Shown: one piece after another, positions 1,899 through 62,055 of the stretch
How the letters are laid out: the number at the start of each line of letters is the position of its first letter
Position numbering within the stretch: the first letter of the stretch is position 1
From: an uncultured Candidatus Saccharibacteria bacterium
GTDB taxonomy: Bacteria; Patescibacteriota; Minisyncoccia; UBA6257
NCBI GenBank assembly: GCA_964479005.1
Contig: CAYZJA010000002.1
Span: forward strand, 1 to 64,000
Direction: 5' to 3'
Length of the DNA: 64,000 bases
Translations under genes and position numbers: made by a program
The notes under the pieces: model-generated
Told to the model about the DNA's origin: nothing
What the model saw: the letters and a program-made list of their open reading frames with translations, nothing else
Databases searched by the model: none

Positions 1899-4381
1899 AC
1901 TACAAAATTGATGAGTTTGTCTTTAATAAAAATAACTTTTTTTATTTTCTTCTTGCTTAAATATTTTTTTATCAATGAAGAACTTTTTGCTAATTTTTCA
2001 GCTCCTGTTTTATCAACGCCTTTCTTTACTTTTAACTTGGCCCTGATTTTACCATTTATTTGAGCTATTAATATAAAGTTCTTTTCTTCTGTTAAATGGA
2101 ATTTAAAAGTAGGCCATTTTTCCTGTGCAACAGATTTTCGATGTTTTAGATATACATTCCACAACTCCTCAGATAGATGAGGGGCAAATGGGGACAAAAG
2201 CAAAACCAAACTTTCCAAATGTTTCTTATCCACTTTTTCCAAAGGAACCTCATATAACTGATTAACATATTCCATTAAAGAACTAATGGCTGTATTAAAA
2301 TGAAGTTTTTCCAAGTCTTCTGTTACTTTTTTGATGGTTTTATGCCTTGTCTTTTCCAGATTTCTCAAATTCTCTTTTAATTTTCTTTTTGCCTCTGCAG
2401 TCAAAATTAATTTTTTCTTTTCTTTCTTCTTTTTAGATTTTGCACCAATTAATGGATCTTTTTCAGCCACCAAATACCAAACCCGATTAAGAAACCGATA
2501 TATTCCGATAACTCCCTGACTACCCCATGGTTTTGAAAAAGATAAAGGCCCCATAAACATTTCGTACATTCTCAAACTATCAGTTCCATATTTTTTAATA
2601 ATATCATCAGGACTTATTACATTACCCCTTGATTTAGACATCTTTTCTCCGTCTTCACCCAAAATAATGCCTTGATTAATCAAACAAGAAAATGGCTCTA
2701 AAGTAGAAACAACTCCAATATCATAAAGAAATTTATGCCAGAAACGGGCATATAAAAGATGCAAGACCGCATGCTCCACTCCTCCAATATAAATATCAAC
2801 CGGCATCCAGCATTTTTCTTTTTTAATATCAACTAATTTTTTCTTATTCTTTGGATCTAAATAACGCAAAAAATACCATGAAGAGCCTGCCCATTGCGGC
2901 ATTGTATTTACTTCTCTTTTAGCAGGACCTTTACATTTTGGACATTTTACATTTACCCAAGAGGAAATATCCGCTAATGGCGATTCACTCTTTCCACTTG
3001 GTTGATATTTTTTAATTTCAGGCAGTTTTAACGGCAATTCACTCTCCTTTAGAGGCACATTACCGCATTTAGAGCATTTAATTATAGGAATAGGTTCCCC
3101 CCAATATCTCTGACGGGAAAAAATCCAATCTCTTAATTTATAACGGACATTTTTCTTACCTCCAATATAGAGAGCAATTTTTTCCTGGGCTATTTTTGAA
3201 GAAGTACCATTAAACGGCCCGGAATTCATTAATATTCCATCTGATGAAATAACCTCTTTTACTGGCAAACGAAACTGCTCGGCAAATTGAAGGTCCCGTT
3301 CATCATGCGCAGGAACAGCCATTATCGCCCCTGTTCCATAACTCATTAAAACATAGTCAGATACCCAAATCGGCACTCTTTCCCTGTTAGCGGGATTTAT
3401 AGCATACGCTCCAGTAAATACTCCGCTTTTTTCTTTAATTTGAGCTTGCCTTTCAAAATCTGATTTTTGTGAAGCTTGCTCAATATACTTTTTTACTTCA
3501 GAGCTGGAACTTTCTGAAGTAATTTTTTTTATTAAAGGATGCTCTGGCGCTAATACCAAATAAGTAGCCCCAAAAATTGTATCGGTTCTGGTTGTAAAAA
3601 CTTTAATATATTCTTCATGCCCAACAACCTTAAATTCTATATCCACGCCTTCAGAACGGCCAATCCAATTTCTCTGCATTGTTTTTACACGTTCAGGCCA
3701 ATCCAATAGATCCAAATCCTTTAATAATTTATCTGCGTAAGCTGTTATTTTTAAAACCCATTGTTTTAATTTCTTCCTTTCTACTAAAGCACCGCAACGA
3801 TCGCATTTACCTACAACAACTTCTTCATCAGCTAAAACAGTTTTACAAGAAGGACACCAGTTAACAGAAATTTCATCTTCATAAGCTAAGCCGTGTTTAT
3901 AAAGCTGTAAAAATATCCATTGAGTCCATTTATAATAATTAGGATCAGTTGTATTAACTTCTCTCTGCCAATCATAACTAAATCCCATTGCCTGAAGCTG
4001 CTTGCGAAAATATTTAACATTTTTCGCTACTACTTCTTTTGGGTTTTTCTTGGTTTTTATGGCATAATTTTCTGCTGGTAATCCAAAAGCATCCCATCCC
4101 ATTGGGTGTAAAACATCATAACCTTTCATCCGATAATAACGCGACAAAATATCAGAAGCTGTATATCCTTCTATGTGTCCGACATGAAGTCCTTCTCCTG
4201 AAGGATAAGGAAACATATCTAAGATATAGATATGTTTCTTTTTAGGCTTATAAGAACCTTGCTTCGCAAGAACCTTGTTATTCGCCTTTGGCTCATAATC
4301 AGCAGTATGCCAAACTTTATAATTGTTTTTAGCCCAAATATTTTGCCATTTGGGTTCAATTTTATTAGGTTGGTAGGACAT
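1895..4381 (-). CDS. leuS: Leucyl-tRNA synthetase
   Basis: 828 aa with HVGH and KMSKS motifs; PYPSGEGLHVGHIEGYTASD and MGWDAFGLPAENYAIK match class I LeuRS. Confidence 0.95.
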   Translation of the reverse strand: MSYQPNKIEPKWQNIWAKNNYKVWHTADYEPKANNKVLAKQGSYKPKKKHIYILDMFPYPSGEGLHVGHIEGYTASDILSRYYRMKGYDVLHPMGWDAFGLPAENYAIKTKKNPKEVVAKNVKYFRKQLQAMGFSYDWQREVNTTDPNYYKWTQWIFLQLYKHGLAYEDEISVNWCPSCKTVLADEEVVVGKCDRCGALVERKKLKQWVLKITAYADKLLKDLDLLDWPERVKTMQRNWIGRSEGVDIEFKVVGHEEYIKVFTTRTDTIFGATYLVLAPEHPLIKKITSESSSSEVKKYIEQASQKSDFERQAQIKEKSGVFTGAYAINPANRERVPIWVSDYVLMSYGTGAIMAVPAHDERDLQFAEQFRLPVKEVISSDGILMNSGPFNGTSSKIAQEKIALYIGGKKNVRYKLRDWIFSRQRYWGEPIPIIKCSKCGNVPLKESELPLKLPEIKKYQPSGKSESPLADISSWVNVKCPKCKGPAKREVNTMPQWAGSSWYFLRYLDPKNKKKLVDIKKEKCWMPVDIYIGGVEHAVLHLLYARFWHKFLYDIGVVSTLEPFSCLINQGIILGEDGEKMSKSRGNVISPDDIIKKYGTDSLRMYEMFMGPLSFSKPWGSQGVIGIYRFLNRVWYLVAEKDPLIGAKSKKKKEKKKLILTAEAKRKLKENLRNLEKTRHKTIKKVTEDLEKLHFNTAISSLMEYVNQLYEVPLEKVDKKHLESLVLLLSPFAPHLSEELWNVYLKHRKSVAQEKWPTFKFHLTEEKNFILIAQINGKIRAKLKVKKGVDKTGAEKLAKSSSLIKKYLSKKKIKKVIFIKDKLINFVV
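4249..4280 (-). repeat. AGGTTCT direct-repeat element copy, in frame inside leuS
   Basis: ACAAGGTTCTTGCGAAGCAAGGTTCTTAT on the minus strand encodes NKVLAKQGSYK within a lineage-specific insertion in LeuRS. Confidence 0.6.
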
Positions 4382-14634: not shown

Positions 14635-14865
14635 TTATTTAATAACGGTGCTCATTGATCGAATTAATCCAAAATCAATAAGCCCAAGAACAATAGCAAC
14701 AGCAAAAGAAAGCCCAAGAACACCCAAAGTATAACGTATTGTTTCTTTACGCGTGGGCCAATTTACTTTCTTTAACTCTTGAATAGCTCCTTTAAAATAC
14801 CTCTTTATATTTTCCATTTTTTTCTTTTTAAAAATGCCCCAAAGGGCACTTTTATAGTCTATCAC
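14635..14865 (-). CDS. secE: Preprotein translocase subunit SecE (true start probably the internal Met at about 14817)
   Basis: MENIKRYFKGAIQELKKVNWPTRKE followed by a single TM helix. Confidence 0.8.
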   Translation of the reverse strand: MIDYKSALWGIFKKKKMENIKRYFKGAIQELKKVNWPTRKETIRYTLGVLGLSFAVAIVLGLIDFGLIRSMSTVIK

Positions 14866-15416
14866 AAACCAAGTTTTTTATCAATCTTTTGCATACCTTG
14901 TAAAACTAAATCAACAAATTCTTTTAAGGAAAGCTCTAAGAAAGATTCACATTGTTTGATAATCTCCCGATTAGCCCCCTTAGCAAACCCTTTTTCTTTA
15001 AAGCGATTTAAAATATTATCAGTTGTCACATCTTTTATTTTCTTGGAAGGCAATACTAAAGTAGCAGCCACAATTAAACCTGTTAAAGGATCCACGCAAA
15101 ATAAAGCTTTAGCCATTTTAGTTTCAGGCGCAAAACCATGAATTTCATTATGGGTTTTTACTGCTTCTACAATTTCCTTATCTATGTTTTGTTCCTGCAA
15201 ATACTCTGCTCCCATTAAAGAATGCTGCTCTGGCTTGTCTTTTGTTTCTTCATAATCTATATCGTGAAGCAGTCCAGCTATCTCCCATTTTTCTTCATCT
15301 TCTTTAAAATATTTTGCTAATTCTTTCATAGCAGCTCCACAAGCCAAACAATGCTTAATCAAATTAAGCGTTTTAACTTTATTATTTAACATTGATAAAG
15401 CTTCGTTTTTGTTCAT
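14862..15416 (-). CDS. HD-domain phosphohydrolase
   Basis: H..HD motif (LLHDIDYEE) and overall HD/HDIG fold signature. Confidence 0.7.
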   Translation of the reverse strand: MNKNEALSMLNNKVKTLNLIKHCLACGAAMKELAKYFKEDEEKWEIAGLLHDIDYEETKDKPEQHSLMGAEYLQEQNIDKEIVEAVKTHNEIHGFAPETKMAKALFCVDPLTGLIVAATLVLPSKKIKDVTTDNILNRFKEKGFAKGANREIIKQCESFLELSLKEFVDLVLQGMQKIDKKLGL

Positions 15417-15490
15417 AAAAGATTATTCAGATTATAAAAAATTAATTCTAATAATTATTATAAGATAGAAAAAAATAATGTCAATATAAC

Positions 15491-15524
15491 TTGACAGAAT
15501 AAATATTTAGTGTAAAATAATAGG
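15491..15524 (+). promoter_or_regulatory. Near-consensus sigma-70-type promoter
   Basis: TTGACA, 16-nt spacer, extended -10 gTGtAAAAT, in an AT-rich orphan intergenic region. Confidence 0.4.
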
Positions 15525-15715
15525 TAATCAAGGCGGGTCTTATGCAATTTACTAAATTACTCAATGTGAAGGATATGACCTGTTCGTGAAAAATTATTTA
15601 TCTTCAATTCACCTTGATTGCAATACATCTTCGTATTGAGCTTGAACCTTGAAAAAATTTTAAGAAAGGAGAGGAAAAAAATAAAAGAAATAAAATGAAA
15701 GGATAAAAAGAATTA

Positions 15716-15853
15716 ATGGTAAAAAATGCATTATTGAAAAACCTAAAAAGTGAACGAGCTTCTGCCCAAATAACGATGAAAATACACAGAATGATTAAGA
15801 AAGTAAGAATTGAAAAAGAAAAAGATTTAGAAAAAGAAAGGGAGAAAAAATGA
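15716..15853 (+). CDS. Putative small basic protein (45 aa); stop overlaps the next start as ATGA
   Basis: MVKNALLKNLKSERASAQITMKIHRMIKKVRIEKEKDLEKERGEKK; its TGA overlaps the ATG of the 15850 ORF. AT-rich, so possibly spurious. Confidence 0.2.
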   Translation: MVKNALLKNLKSERASAQITMKIHRMIKKVRIEKEKDLEKEREKK

Positions 15854-16155
15854 AAATGAAAGTTAAGATGGACTGTGAATGTGTTACTAATGGAGGAAAC
15901 TGTATAGCAAGTGAAACAAATAAACCAAAAGAATTTAATAAATGCGTTTTTCAGAAGAATCACATGGATGAAAAGATAATGAAAGAACGCTATATATGTT
16001 GTTTATCAAACCAATGTAGAAAAAGATTAGAATCCTATGGAAAACCGCCAGAGTATTTCTTTGAACATATCTGTCCACAGATTGATCTAAAATTTGAAAA
16101 ATACCTTAAGAGAAAAAATAAATCAAAAAGAAAGAAAGAAAAGATTAGGGTATAA
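15850..16155 (+). CDS. Small Cys-rich protein (101 aa, 8 Cys, basic C-terminus)
   Basis: ORF is followed directly by a strong intrinsic terminator and preceded by a promoter; no similarity recognised. Confidence 0.4.
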   Translation: MKMKVKMDCECVTNGGNCIASETNKPKEFNKCVFQKNHMDEKIMKERYICCLSNQCRKRLESYGKPPEYFFEHICPQIDLKFEKYLKRKNKSKRKKEKIRV

Positions 16156-16188
16156 ATTCTCCTTTAAAAAATGTAATTATGAAAAGTT

Positions 16189-16228
16189 TAGGGAACCATC
16201 CGAACGTCGGAGGTTCCCTATTTTTTTT
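16189..16228 (+). terminator. Intrinsic terminator
   Basis: TAGGGAACC/GGTTCCCTA stem followed by T8. Confidence 0.65.
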
Positions 16229-16269
16229 ATTTAATTTATTTAATTTCTAAAAGCTCAACTTTAAATATA

Positions 16270-17247
16270 TTAAGAAGTTTTTTTATATTTTTGTTTTATT
16301 ACATCCCGTAATATCTTTTCAACGCGCTTTATACTTTCATCATCAAGTATAGAAATTGGAATTGCCTTCTTCCCTATTTTCTTTAGTTGATTAAGTTTTT
16401 CTTTCATTTTATTTTTATCTAATAAGTCAGACTTACTCAAAAAAACATATTCAACCTTATCCAAAAGTTGCTTGCTGTAAGCGCCTAATTCATTTCTGAT
16501 AATCTGATAATCTTTTATTGGGTCAGGTGATTCTGCGGAAATAAAATGAAAAAGTGTTTTTGTTCTATCAATATGGCGTAAAAATTTAATGCCAAGTCCT
16601 TTATTATCAGAAGCGCCTTCAATAATTCCAGGAACATCAGCTAATATCAATTCATAATAAACGCCCAGATTTGGATTAAGTGTTGTAAATGGATAATTAG
16701 CCACCTTGCTTTTAGCGTTAGTCAACTCATTTAACAAACTGGATTTACCTATATTCGGCAAACCAACAAATCCAACATCGGCAATTAGCTTAAGTTCAAG
16801 CCTTAATTCATATTCTTCACCTGGCAAACCTTCTTGAAATTGAGTTGGGCTTGTATTAGTTGACGACCTAAATTTAAAATTACCTTTGCCGCCCTTACCG
16901 CCTTTAACTATTAACAACCGCTGTCCAATAGAGATAATCTCCAAATCTTCGCCAGTAGATAGATTATGAACTAAAGTGCCAATCGGCACTTTTAAAATAA
17001 TATTTTTACCATCTTCCCCGTCATGAAATTGAGGTTTTCCATTTTCACCATCTTCTGCTGCTAATTCTTTTTTACCGCGAAACTGGGAAAGAGCGCCAAT
17101 ATCAGACACGCCTTCTAAATAAATACTGCCTCCTTTGCCGCCATTACCACCAGTTGGTCCAAGACTCATCATTACTTTGTTAAATGCTACTGCGCCGCGA
17201 CCTCCATGACCGGCCTTTACTTTAATCTTTATATCATCAATTAACAT
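16270..17247 (-). CDS. obg: GTPase Obg/CgtA
   Basis: Obg fold N-terminus (KAGHGGRGAVAF) plus G domain GLPNIGKSSLLN. Confidence 0.9.
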   Translation of the reverse strand: MLIDDIKIKVKAGHGGRGAVAFNKVMMSLGPTGGNGGKGGSIYLEGVSDIGALSQFRGKKELAAEDGENGKPQFHDGEDGKNIILKVPIGTLVHNLSTGEDLEIISIGQRLLIVKGGKGGKGNFKFRSSTNTSPTQFQEGLPGEEYELRLELKLIADVGFVGLPNIGKSSLLNELTNAKSKVANYPFTTLNPNLGVYYELILADVPGIIEGASDNKGLGIKFLRHIDRTKTLFHFISAESPDPIKDYQIIRNELGAYSKQLLDKVEYVFLSKSDLLDKNKMKEKLNQLKKIGKKAIPISILDDESIKRVEKILRDVIKQKYKKTS

Positions 17248-17248
17248 A

Positions 17249-18298
17249 TTACTCTCTTTCTAAATTTGTATTGCAAGTAGGACATTTTAAATTTGAACAA
17301 GGAACGCCTAGCTCATGCGCAATCTTATAACCGCATTTAGAACAAATACAATAACCGCTTGGACCCTTGCCAATTGCTTTTTGAATTTCTCCCTTAAACC
17401 TACCTTTTCTCTGCCAACCAAAACTCCTTCCAAGATGAGGCCTATAAAAACCAGTACTTATTTTATGACTTTCAATTTGGATTGCGACATATTGAATACT
17501 TTTAATTTCTTCCATAAGTTTTTTCCTTAATCTATCGGAAATTTTAGTTGCTTCTTCCACACTCAAATCGCTTTGCAGCTTTATAACTAAATTTACTGTT
17601 GTAGCTGAACCCTTTTTTTGGGTTTTTAAAGAAGAAATTTCAATGCTTTGTTCTTTGGCAATATTTTTTATTTTTTCTTCTATATCTTCGCCAGCAGTAA
17701 CATCAAGCAAAGAATCAATCGCTTCTCTTCCTAATGAAAATGATTCTTTAACAATGTATAAACCAATTAATAAAGCTAAAAGAGAATCAGCGTAAATCCA
17801 GTATCTAACAAAAAACAAACCTGTTAAAACTGCTATTGATGTATAAACATCAATCCGTGAATGAACTCCGTCTGAAAGCAGGCTGACAGAACCCTCTTTT
17901 TTACCATAATGAATCTTCAATCTAGCCATAATTTCATTCACAACAGCTGAAAATATCATAACGCCAAAAGCCAGATAACTAATTTGAATTTTTTCAGGAT
18001 TAAGAAAATTTTTATAAGCTTCGTAAATAATGCCGATGCCAGTTGCAAAAACAATAATTGTGATAATTACACCGCTTAAAACTTCAAATTTATAATGGCC
18101 ATAAGGATGTTCTTTATCACTGGGTTTTTTAGAAATTTTAATCCCAATATAACCAATAGCCGAAGAAAATATATCCATAAAAGAATGCAGTCCTTCAGCT
18201 AAAATAGCGGCGGAATTAGAAAAAGCGCCAACAGCGATTTTGCTTCCAGCTAAAACAATATTTGCCAATATTGAAATTATTGCGACTTTCTCTTTCAT
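17249..18298 (-). CDS. Cation diffusion facilitator family transporter with C-terminal Cys-rich zinc-ribbon extension
   Basis: HSFMD and HSRID (H-x3-D) motifs in TM2/TM5; C-terminal CICSKCGYK...CSNLKCPTC. Confidence 0.85.
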   Translation of the reverse strand: MKEKVAIISILANIVLAGSKIAVGAFSNSAAILAEGLHSFMDIFSSAIGYIGIKISKKPSDKEHPYGHYKFEVLSGVIITIIVFATGIGIIYEAYKNFLNPEKIQISYLAFGVMIFSAVVNEIMARLKIHYGKKEGSVSLLSDGVHSRIDVYTSIAVLTGLFFVRYWIYADSLLALLIGLYIVKESFSLGREAIDSLLDVTAGEDIEEKIKNIAKEQSIEISSLKTQKKGSATTVNLVIKLQSDLSVEEATKISDRLRKKLMEEIKSIQYVAIQIESHKISTGFYRPHLGRSFGWQRKGRFKGEIQKAIGKGPSGYCICSKCGYKIAHELGVPCSNLKCPTCNTNLERE

Positions 18299-60672: not shown

Positions 60673-62055
60673 TCATTTATTATACAACATTTCTTTCAAA
60701 ATTGTTATTTCCTGACAAAAAACAGGGTTTTTTTCAATTTCAGAAGATATCTTTTTATATGCATGAATAACGGTGGTATGGTCACGATTACCTAATTTTT
60801 CAGCAATACTGGTATAGGAATAATGCAACTCTTCGCGCAAAAGATACATTACTATTTGCCTTGGTTTTACTAATTCTTTCTTCCTAGAACGACCCAAAAC
60901 ATCGTCTTCTTTAAGGTCATAGAAAGAAACTATTTTTTTAATCACTTCTTTTGGTGAAATATATTTATTTGATTTATTTAAAATGAGTGACAATATTCTT
61001 TTGGTTTCTTCTAAAGAGATTGGACTATTTTTAAGGCGCGCATGCGCGATGACTCTGTTTAATGCTCCCTCTAATTCCCTGATATTCTTTGGGATTGCCT
61101 CAGCTATATACTTAAGAACATCATTGTTTATAAGATGGGATACATCCTGACTTTTGTTTTCTAAAATAGCTAATCTTGTTTCAAAATCAGGATAACCAAT
61201 ATCAGCTATCATACCCCCTTCAAATCTAGACCTTAACCGTTCCTCAATAGACGGAATAGATTTTGGCGGGCGATCAGAGGTAAAAACAATTTGTTTATCT
61301 TTTTCATAGAGCGTATTAAACGTATGGAAAAGTTCTTCTTGTGTTTTATCTTTTCCGGCGACAAACTGGACATCGTCAATTAAAAGAAGATCAAGATTTC
61401 GGAAACTTTTTTTAAACTCTGTCATTTTTTGATTACGGATAGCATTAACTAAATCATCTGTAAATTTTTCCGAGGTAGCGTATAAAATTTTCAATTTCTT
61501 TTTTTTTCTCTTTAGTTCATTACCAATAGCTTGTAGAAGATGTGTTTTTCCTAATCCAACGCCGCCATAGATAAAAAGAGGATTATATTTTTTTCCTAGA
61601 TTTTCTATTACTGCCAAAGATGCTGCATTAGCTAATTCATTATTGGTTCCGACAACAAAGTTTTCAAAAAGGTATTTTGGATTAAGATTAGTTTCAGGGT
61701 CAATATTAAATTCTAATTGTTCATCTAAAACTGACGATTTTGAAATAGTTGAAGAACGTTTTGTTTTTTTAGTCTCTATTTTTTTTAAAGAATCTTTATT
61801 AGTAGTAACCAGATATTCAATCTTTTTAATTTTAGGATTTAAGCTAAAAAGAGCGTGTAGAATTTGTTTATGGTATTTATTTTCAAGCCATTCTTTTGTA
61901 AAACTAGATGGGACACCTATAAAGACCGTTCCTTCTTTAATATCTAAAATAAAAGCATCTTTTAACCATGTTAGGTAATTAGCTTTAGAAATATTCAATT
62001 TAATCTCTCCCAAAGCTGCTTCCCAAAGTTCTTTGATATCCATAATTGAAATCAC
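60673..62055 (-). CDS. dnaA: Chromosomal replication initiator DnaA
   Basis: AAA+ Walker A GGVGLGKTHLL and C-terminal DnaA-box-binding HTH. Confidence 0.95.
   Translation of the reverse strand: MISIMDIKELWEAALGEIKLNISKANYLTWLKDAFILDIKEGTVFIGVPSSFTKEWLENKYHKQILHALFSLNPKIKKIEYLVTTNKDSLKKIETKKTKRSSTISKSSVLDEQLEFNIDPETNLNPKYLFENFVVGTNNELANAASLAVIENLGKKYNPLFIYGGVGLGKTHLLQAIGNELKRKKKKLKILYATSEKFTDDLVNAIRNQKMTEFKKSFRNLDLLLIDDVQFVAGKDKTQEELFHTFNTLYEKDKQIVFTSDRPPKSIPSIEERLRSRFEGGMIADIGYPDFETRLAILENKSQDVSHLINNDVLKYIAEAIPKNIRELEGALNRVIAHARLKNSPISLEETKRILSLILNKSNKYISPKEVIKKIVSFYDLKEDDVLGRSRKKELVKPRQIVMYLLREELHYSYTSIAEKLGNRDHTTVIHAYKKISSEIEKNPVFCQEITILKEMLYNK

Follow-up and report, generated by a model that had tools for sequence, protein, structure and literature searches.

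The cassette and its transcription signals

The window analysed here is a stretch of 64,000 nucleotides (positions 1 to 64,000 of contig CAYZJA010000002.1, assembly GCA_964479005.1, from an uncultured member of the Patescibacteriota). Between its HD-domain gene (14862–15416) and obg (16270–17247), both on the minus strand, an 853-bp spacer houses a compact cassette that reads along the plus strand and consists of a promoter, a long structured leader, two small coupled open reading frames (ORFs) and a terminator. The initial annotation of the locus had described an AT-rich island transcribed against both of its neighbours and equipped with exactly these components, and each was found where it had been placed (Table 1). 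The island (15417–16269) has a GC content of 24–30%, and its GC and AT skews both flip to positive, which fits a gene on the plus strand; it forms a self-contained transcription unit directed against its neighbours. Within the 64-kb window there is no second copy of the leader or of either protein. Related loci and contigs that were compared with the window are designated by L-numbers (L006, L018, L112 and so on).

The promoter deserves its description as near-consensus, matching the sigma-70 consensus at 11 of 12 positions in a score that leaves the extended −10 TG out of count. The region overall shows no excess of promoter-like sites (8 found, 10.4 expected), so that the case for the cassette promoter rests on its conservation. 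The promoter 28-mer, TTGACARAATARRTATTTNGTGTARAAT, first seen when upstream regions were aligned from loci that share only ~50% protein identity and lie in different surroundings, is present with 0–2 mismatches at all related cassettes except L112 (5 mismatches). It is single in the window, where the expected number of chance matches is 0, and it was found in 11 metagenome stretches; wherever these extend far enough downstream, a member of the cysteine-protein family encoded by the longer reading frame, ORF101, is present as well. Loci found through protein similarity likewise carry the 28-mer, with 0–5 mismatches. No exact match occurs in 185,579 GTDB species genomes; the promoters of the closest relatives are one or two bases off, and these loci were recovered through Obg instead. 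Back to back with the cassette promoter, its −35 box separated from the other by 6 nt, lies a perfect divergent promoter on the minus strand, also kept in syntenic loci, which presumably drives the HD-secE-nusG-rplK genes.

At the other end of the cassette the terminator folds far more stably than expected (z = −5.0, with none of 200 shuffles as stable). The 9-bp outer stem and T8 tract proposed earlier are indeed there, and a bulged A separates the outer stem from a further 5-bp inner stem; a simple terminator scan missed the hairpin because this bulge splits its 14 bp. A homologous hairpin with a conserved upstream GTAATTAT.AAAAGTTT is found in L029, L031, L108, L110, L112, L114 and L115. 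An A-tract 5' of the stem, together with the T-tract 3' of it, suggests that the terminator is bidirectional and probably shared with the convergent obg.

The transcript between these two signals would begin with a leader of ~191 nt, counted from the predicted start near 15524–15526 to the ORF45 ATG at 15716, in keeping with the ~190 nt given in the initial annotation. The first part of this leader is a predicted hairpin lying directly 3' of the −10 box and ~80–170 nt long across the cassettes, whose closing helix, P1, has its foot 5–10 nt past the −10 box in all of them, the start site itself being a prediction. Inside P1 lies an irregular stem, variable among cassettes, with the motif ACUUUACUYAAU.GUGARG. 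In the window the P1-enclosed element has a folding z-score of −4.05, with 0 of 200 shuffles as stable, and z-scores for the leader fold in five cassettes range from −2.8 to −6.0 (−5.5 in L018, −3.9 in L010, −6.0 in L006). More importantly, P1 covaries. MAFFT and RNAalifold applied to whole leaders misaligned the helix, so its strands were extracted by hand; in the resulting set of 14 distinct cassettes 91.8% of cells are paired, and 11 of the 14 base pairs show compensatory two-sided changes. The covariation score of 0.609 compares with 0.316 in shuffles (reached by 0 of 500) and with 0.16 or less once one strand is shifted against its partner. A.C combinations are far outnumbered by G.U pairs (18 cells), which indicates a helix formed in plus-strand RNA and not in DNA.

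The interior of the hairpin behaves differently from its closing helix. It is unrelated in L112, L110 and L009, at least five different interiors occur among the cassettes, and the inner hairpins CUUUAC/GUGAAG and GUGAGGAAA/UUUUCUCGC, judged by eye, are invariant or show one-sided changes only. Two loci, L016 (129–298) and L108 (upstream of 3001), contain an internal tandem duplication of ~45 nt, ACUUAAUGUGAAG...CGAGUCAUU, and L110 (upstream of 2420) has an additional long hairpin between promoter and P1. An interior that is freely changed, duplicated or replaced is the pattern expected of an element in which structure alone counts. Rfam at its gathering threshold returned only tRNAs from the window and 16 related loci, and at a permissive E ≤ 10 it gave no plus-strand leader match on the island. 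Nor do the predicted folds contain an expression platform, there being no U-tract or terminator after P1 and no helix over either Shine-Dalgarno (SD) box, SD1 or SD2.

Downstream of the hairpin the leader holds a second copy of GAACUUU, kept in most variants, and then a series of translation signals. SD1 is present in every cassette, even in those devoid of ORF45, and GAAAGGAGG or a close variant of it is found ~45–175 nt upstream of the cysteine-protein ATG in every one. The three-codon mini-ORF that follows recurs in L010, L014, L018, L025, L028, L029 (twice), L031 and L110, with variants in L009, L017, L019 and L112, and goes together with the long form of the linker. In the short-linker cassettes L006, L016, L021 and L024 a conserved segment, GAATTATTTCTGTAATTAAATGTAATTAA, takes the position of mini-ORF and ORF45 and includes an AT palindrome of 5 bp as well as a possible eight-codon ORF starting at AUU (IISVIKCN*). 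Finally, AAAAGGAGAAAAAAUG precedes every cysteine-protein gene.

Table 1. Features of the cassette and the promoter adjoining it, in window coordinates
Feature	Position	Strand	Description
Divergent promoter	15484->15457	-	TTGACA-16 nt-TATAAT
Cassette promoter	15491..15518	+	sigma-70 type, TTGACA-16 nt-TAAAAT
5'-terminal leader hairpin	15524..15621	+	~100 nt; closing helix P1, 15524-15537 x 15608-15621
Second small hairpin	15621..15638	+	CAAUAC-AUCUUC-GUAUUG; only in the leader subtype of window, L018 and L114
Single-stranded motif	15641..15657	+	UUGAAC(C/U)UUGAAAAA; kept in nearly all cassettes
SD1	15664..15674	+	Shine-Dalgarno-like box GAAAGGAG(A)GG, GAAAGGAGAGG in the window; ~175 nt 5' of the main start
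Mini-ORF	15695..15706	+	AUG AAA GGA UAA (MKG*); AAAGGA doubles as ORF45 ribosome-binding site
ORF45	15716..15853	+	45 codons; basic, hydrophilic; UGA overlaps the ORF101 AUG
SD2	15838..15844	+	AAGGGAG, ORF101 ribosome-binding site inside the ORF45 3' end; followed by A6-UGA
ORF101	15850..16155	+	101 codons; 8 Cys; basic (isoelectric point 9.5); Lys/Arg tail
Terminator	16189..16228	+	intrinsic; 9-bp outer stem, one bulged A, 5-bp inner stem, T8

Two further observations concern the surroundings. The minus strand carries ten of the window's 11 ORFs that reach 430 amino acids or more, GC skew stays negative all through 12–20 kb, and dnaA (60673–62055, minus strand) and gyrB lie at the right end of the window, so that the cassette would be among the few genes running head-on to the inferred direction of replication, an unusual placement for such strong expression signals. 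The CDF cation-efflux transporter adjoining obg (17249–18298, minus strand) carries an extra cysteine-rich C-terminal tail, CICSKCGYKIAHELGVPCSNLKCPTCN, with the look of a zinc ribbon.

Two small orphan protein families

ORF101, with its eight cysteines and Lys/Arg-rich tail as originally described, has nine close homologues at 52–100% identity. A profile that includes divergent members retrieves 23 clusters among 5.8 billion proteins, and an exhaustive search with a hidden Markov model retrieves 14 representatives among 1.84 billion. Members are 85–141 amino acids long, all derive from metagenomes or metagenome-assembled genomes (MAGs), and none contains a Pfam domain. They fall into four subtypes that share invariant C9, C18, C32 and C56 along with N14 and F34; the four invariant cysteines lie in the N-terminal half, in the spacing C-x8-C-x13-C-x23-C, and CxxC is absent. 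Ratios of nonsynonymous to synonymous substitution (dN/dS) of 0.12–0.30 within subtypes (14 pairs) place the protein under purifying selection. Judged by these homologues and by the constraint upon them, ORF101 is a real gene of a tiny orphan family.

What kind of protein it encodes is less readily said. Profile searches of Pfam, PHROG, PADLOC, NCBIfam and the PDB with both proteins gave only sub-threshold noise, in agreement with the initial remark that neither was recognisable, and a literature search on cysteine-rich small proteins of the Candidate Phyla Radiation (CPR) or on leader RNAs of Parcubacteria found nothing relevant. The structure prediction that had been proposed as a next step gave a poor model: for ORF101, the AlphaFold2 model from a 22-sequence alignment reaches a predicted local distance difference test score (pLDDT) of 56 and contains two helices (residues 46–62 and 67–100), while the cysteine-rich half is effectively unmodelled. 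ORF101, like ORF45, is hydrophilic and has no hydrophobic segment.

ORF45, a basic frame of 45 codons as first described (isoelectric point 10.2), had been suspected of being spurious because of the AT-rich composition. This worry is answered by comparison. An ORF of 38–49 codons that ends at or overlaps the main start is found in eight independent cassettes, those of the window, L009, L014, L025, L031, L110, L112 and L114, and each of the eight frames is improbable against dinucleotide shuffles of the A-rich linker (P = 0–0.03). The encoded peptides align and begin with MV(K/S)xxLLKN(L/A)K(S/N), and a profile search yields a family of 16 clusters (38–53 amino acids) with the N-terminus MVKxxLLKNLKS, so that homology searches give ORF101 and ORF45 each a small family, of 23 and 16 clusters, respectively. 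The ATGA overlap of its stop with the ORF101 start (15850–15853), also part of the initial description, recurs in L009, L031, L110 and L114.

At the same time ORF45 is not a fixed companion. It is absent from at least six intact short-linker cassettes (L006, L016, L019, L021, L024, L108) and degraded in L010 and L029; in L029 the homologue is broken at an A10 run (~215–300 nt from the promoter), which may reflect a frameshift mutation, an assembly error or a slippage-prone sequence. In L112 and L014 a single in-frame stop (TAA-ATG) separates it from the main ORF, and in L018 and L115 the two are fused in frame, natural fusions which indicate that ORF45 functions together with the cysteine protein or as an extension of its N-terminus. 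In L015 an unrelated cysteine-rich upstream ORF of 41 amino acids (MEKRATNVCPYIYLYKYCLCCLCIKKDCGLKDIYEIVKKKK, 169–294 nt from the promoter) replaces it. By its conservation ORF45, like ORF101, is a real gene under purifying selection, yet an optional one. Conservation of the two genes as a pair, which the initial annotation had proposed to check, is therefore seen in part: the ORF101 family and the cassette are kept in relatives, whereas ORF45 comes and goes.

Distribution and replacement of alleles

The genes around the cassette mark the genome as one of the Patescibacteria/Paceibacterota (Parcubacteria). The window's Obg is 94% identical to that of the MAG CAYTXM01 and 56–92% identical to those of 79 other species representatives. 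Among these 80 obg loci the cassette is present in three (L028, L029 and L031), namely those with at least 87% Obg identity and no rearrangement, and neither the leader nor either protein was found in the 77 more distant ones. This confines the family to a clade of roughly genus or family level; judged by this distribution, it is restricted to a narrow clade of Paceibacterota (CPR). In the closest species representative, L028 (CAYTXM010000005.1), the cysteine-gene stretch ~290–388 nt past the promoter is masked as N and the allele cannot be read. Another locus, L030, carries no cassette and has at 2616–3014, downstream of the FKBP gene, an incomplete second copy of the 3' end of obg joined to unrelated sequence, a layout that suggests a local rearrangement or misassembly at the cassette site.

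The usual site reads HD-(rubredoxin-like)-[cassette]-(FKBP)-obg, with the cassette on the strand opposite to its neighbours, and other contexts are seen in a few contigs. At this syntenic site the surrounding genes are close to those of the window (NusG 90–99% identical, Obg 84–94%, HD 73–92%), while the cysteine protein is only 24–66% identical to the window's or undetectable. Moreover, a comparison of the Obg identity matrix with allele type shows that allele class is discordant with relatedness. L025 (subtype 1b) and L019 (subtype 3) have Obg proteins that are 99% identical, and L011 (1b) and L031 (4) are 95% identical, whereas L029 and L031, both of subtype 4, share only 86%. The boundaries of the exchanged segment can be followed along the DNA. 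In sliding windows L025 and L019 are 98–100% identical over 1.5 kb to the left and over more than 1 kb to the right of the cassette, and only 35–48% identical across its coding part; the left breakpoint lies just 5' of the promoter, and the right side passes through a zone of 80–93% in the FKBP gene. L011 and L031 give the same picture, with flanks at 90–100% and the cassette at 37–60%. L025 and L019/L022 come from consecutively numbered samples and may belong to the same population.

Near-identical flanks around unrelated alleles imply that whole cassettes have been replaced by recombination. In addition, leader subtypes and protein subtypes assort independently of one another, implying exchange inside the cassette too. 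Across the cassettes the coding sequence is less well conserved than the promoter, leader, ribosome-binding sites and terminator. The locus thus forms a recombination island, a swapped segment of ~0.8–1.3 kb in an otherwise conserved secE-nusG-rplK / obg neighbourhood. Such a pattern usually marks frequency-dependent selection imposed by phages, hosts or competitors, which makes the locus useful as a strain marker and a candidate for approaching the ecology of CPR bacteria.

Models of function and likeness to known systems

The reading that we regard as moderately probable is that of a lineage-specific high-expression cassette for a small basic protein with four conserved cysteines, placed in the core genome at a polymorphic site prone to recombination. 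In this model the consensus promoter would fire strongly, with transcription starting 6–8 nt past the −10 box, at the foot of P1. The 5'-terminal hairpin, together with a ribosome held at the GAAAGGAGG box or at the mini-ORF, would shield the mRNA from decay that depends on the 5' end. Ribosomes would then be relayed from the mini-ORF to ORF45 and, via the AUGA overlap, to ORF101, while in short-form cassettes they would load directly at SD2. ORF45 would act as a detachable N-terminal partner of the cysteine protein, and the allelic diversity of the latter would be kept by selection. The product itself is probably an abundant cytoplasmic factor with a metal-binding Cys4 centre and affinity for nucleic acids, a reading drawn from the four invariant cysteines, the basic charge and the expression signals, and the weakest step of the model. 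A stabilising leader explains an interior that drifts, is duplicated or is replaced inside a helix whose pairing is kept, and it also accounts for the extra 5' hairpin of L110.

Several points weigh against this model. High expression and mRNA stabilisation are predictions from sequence, and the metal and nucleic-acid binding of the protein are guesses, all the more so as residues 1–39 of the AlphaFold2 model, the cysteine-rich half, are unreliable (pLDDT below 50). The P1 strands were picked by hand before pairs were counted, a procedure that favours the structure, and the window's own P1 holds a C.A mismatch; the 3' half of the window's hairpin interior is degenerate in comparison with L018. 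In long-form cassettes an AUG follows SD1, which may therefore be a ribosome-binding site of the usual kind. A scan of 10 of the window's 11 long ORFs (≥430 amino acids) turned up neither RNase J nor RNase Y. Finally, the loop motif is kept in most leader variants, something that a purely structural stabiliser would not need.

This last point leads to the possibility of a regulatory RNA: the hairpin could be a protein-binding site or a new riboswitch that controls translation or decay instead of passively stabilising the message; its partner might be the encoded basic protein, acting in feedback, or a global RNA-binding protein, to name two examples. We consider such a role unlikely, although several features speak for it: a structured 5' untranslated region (UTR) with a covarying closing helix, always located 5' of the same gene family, with the motif ACUUUACUYAAU.GUGARG and the second GAACUUU copy kept in most variants, and basic encoded proteins. 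The same leader, however, has an interior that is not kept in L112, L110 and L009 and is duplicated in L016 and L108, two-sided compensation restricted to P1 (the inner stems change on one side only), no visible expression platform and no Rfam match for the leader in the window or the 16 related loci, and its independent shuffling against the protein subtypes is contrary to the co-evolution expected of a specific protein–RNA pair. A different departure from the stabilised cassette, of fairly low probability, is that of an undescribed strain-specificity or conflict locus of CPR bacteria, in which balancing selection keeps deeply divergent allele classes in populations and the leader is a new 5'-UTR element that does more than stabilise the message. 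Were this so, the locus might be an anti-phage or host-interaction determinant, for example: a very strongly expressed, basic, cytoplasmic Cys4 protein with an optional, detachable N-terminal peptide, encoded by cassettes exchanged between near-identical genomes.

The coding region invites other readings, all of lower standing. ORF45 and ORF101 could be halves of one protein, joined in some ribosomes by a −1 slip at A6-UGA (A AAA AAA UGA into the AUG frame, with the upstream AGGGAG as stimulator), giving short and N-terminally extended forms. We think this improbable, even though it is compatible with the stabilised high-expression cassette. In the window, L009 and L031 the ORF45 frame does reach its UGA through an A-run, where the main frame is at −1 to it, and L110 and L114 overlap in a similar way; an SD-like GGGAG or GGAG stands directly upstream, and the natural in-frame fusions of L018 and L115 and the lone in-frame stop between the ORFs of L112 and L014 point the same way. 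Yet termination and reinitiation at AUGA would give the same layout with no slippage at all, the distance from the SD-like box to the slip site is unlike the established dnaX or prfB arrangements, the A-run is lost in L110 (AAAAATATGA), L114 (AAAAAGAAATGA) and L025, and many cassettes have no ORF45 to slip from. Much less credible still is the toxin-antitoxin or regulator-effector module to which the pair was likened in the initial annotation, with one product neutralising or controlling the other under an autoregulated promoter. That comparison was prompted by the compact pair of genes with its start/stop overlap, 4 nt in length; their small size and shared orientation, their own promoter and terminator and a palindrome, AAATATTT, in the promoter spacer also speak in its favour. 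It does not survive the fact that the supposed partner ORF45 is missing from at least six intact cassettes, degraded in two and fused in two, and that the cassette occurs once in 64 kb, at one syntenic site in one narrow clade, and is neither scattered nor mobile. Furthermore, neither product matches a toxin, antitoxin or defence family (Pfam, NCBIfam, PADLOC, PHROG), both are hydrophilic and basic and lack the character of membrane toxins, modules of this sort do not typically have so long and structured a leader or such very strong translation signals, and the spacer palindrome is not kept in L112. That the frames are chance openings in an AT-rich spacer, whose hairpin and terminator merely serve the neighbouring genes, is close to untenable: although the composition is AT-rich and the terminator probably shared with obg, the proteins are conserved with dN/dS well below 1, the gene has been called independently in many metagenomes, and the strand-specific skews fit a plus-strand gene. 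Candidates of other kinds were also dropped, among them an integron attC site or a miniature inverted-repeat transposable element (the element occurs only in front of this cysteine-protein gene family), type I and type III toxin systems (no hydrophobic peptide, and no repeat RNA with a nuclease) and a diversity-generating retroelement (no reverse transcriptase or template repeat nearby).

CPR bacteria, or Patescibacteria, account for a large share of bacterial diversity that has not been brought into culture, and the majority of the genes peculiar to their lineages await characterisation. Read as a high-expression cassette, the locus offers a compact and well-delimited example of a maximal-expression unit, in which a consensus promoter, a 5' hairpin, an upstream SD box and coupled small ORFs are combined; with it come two protein families and one RNA structure for which current libraries have no entry, and its leader and promoter could serve as expression parts for low-GC hosts.

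Comparison with described systems places the individual parts, some more closely than others. The cassette resembles type II toxin-antitoxin operons in its two small genes, 4-nt overlap and own promoter, but in contrast to these its upstream gene is dispensable or fused, its leader is long and structured, and it shows no family match, mobility or multiplicity. The protein recalls WhiB-like proteins, which are small Fe-S proteins, in its length of ~100 amino acids, four invariant cysteines and basic C-terminal tail. This is a resemblance only: unlike WhiB-like and zinc-ribbon Cys4 proteins it has no CxxC and no Pfam or PDB sequence match, and unlike the hosts of WhiB-like proteins its organism is not an actinobacterium. 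Polymorphic allele-replacement loci, in which divergent allele classes sit between conserved core genes, include pherotype, bacteriocin/immunity and surface-antigen loci. The cassette shares with them near-identical flanks around unalignable alleles, discordance between allele class and relatedness, and purifying selection within a class, but its product is small, basic, cytoplasmic-looking and of Cys4 type, with no signal peptide, partner receptor or immunity gene. Riboswitches and the autoregulatory leaders of ribosomal-protein genes likewise combine a structured 5' UTR and a covarying closing helix with a single gene family; the cassette leader differs from them in having no invariant core, expression platform or Rfam match, and in assorting independently of the protein subtypes.

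In arrangement the cassette leader resembles leaders of strongly expressed genes. Phage T7 gene 10 has a leader (PMC9590205) with the epsilon element UUAACUUUAA and the same order of promoter, 5' hairpin, UUGAACUUUGA-like motif, A-rich spacer and GGAGG, as judged by eye only; the cassette motif (15641–15657) differs from epsilon at two or three positions, and the window holds no rRNA. Similar, too, are the 5' mRNA stabilisers of Gram-positive bacteria. The STAB-SD of cry3A blocks RNase J1 (PMC4113751), and SD1 shares its core with this class; a 5' stem-loop in the aprE leader of B. subtilis stabilises its mRNA (Hambraeus et al. 2002, as cited in PMC3997798); and the hbs mRNA, which combines a structured 5' UTR with a strong SD, encodes a small, basic, abundant protein (PMC5737220). 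The cassette likewise has a stem-loop near its predicted 5' end and an SD-like GAAAGGAGG far upstream of the main start, and, as with hbs, its product is small and basic; the aprE, cry3A and hbs leaders all front very strongly expressed genes, and in these leaders, as would hold for the cassette, it is the helix that matters and not the sequence of the interior. There is no sequence homology between them, however, and the cassette hairpin is much longer (~80–170 nt), mostly keeps its internal motif, and is often followed by a three-codon mini-ORF after the SD-like box. As far as sequence can tell, then, the cassette would work like 5' stabiliser and STAB-SD leaders. It is a new, clade-restricted combination of known kinds of element and not a new principle, although the swapping of alleles and the unexplained conservation of the loop motif leave room for something more interesting.

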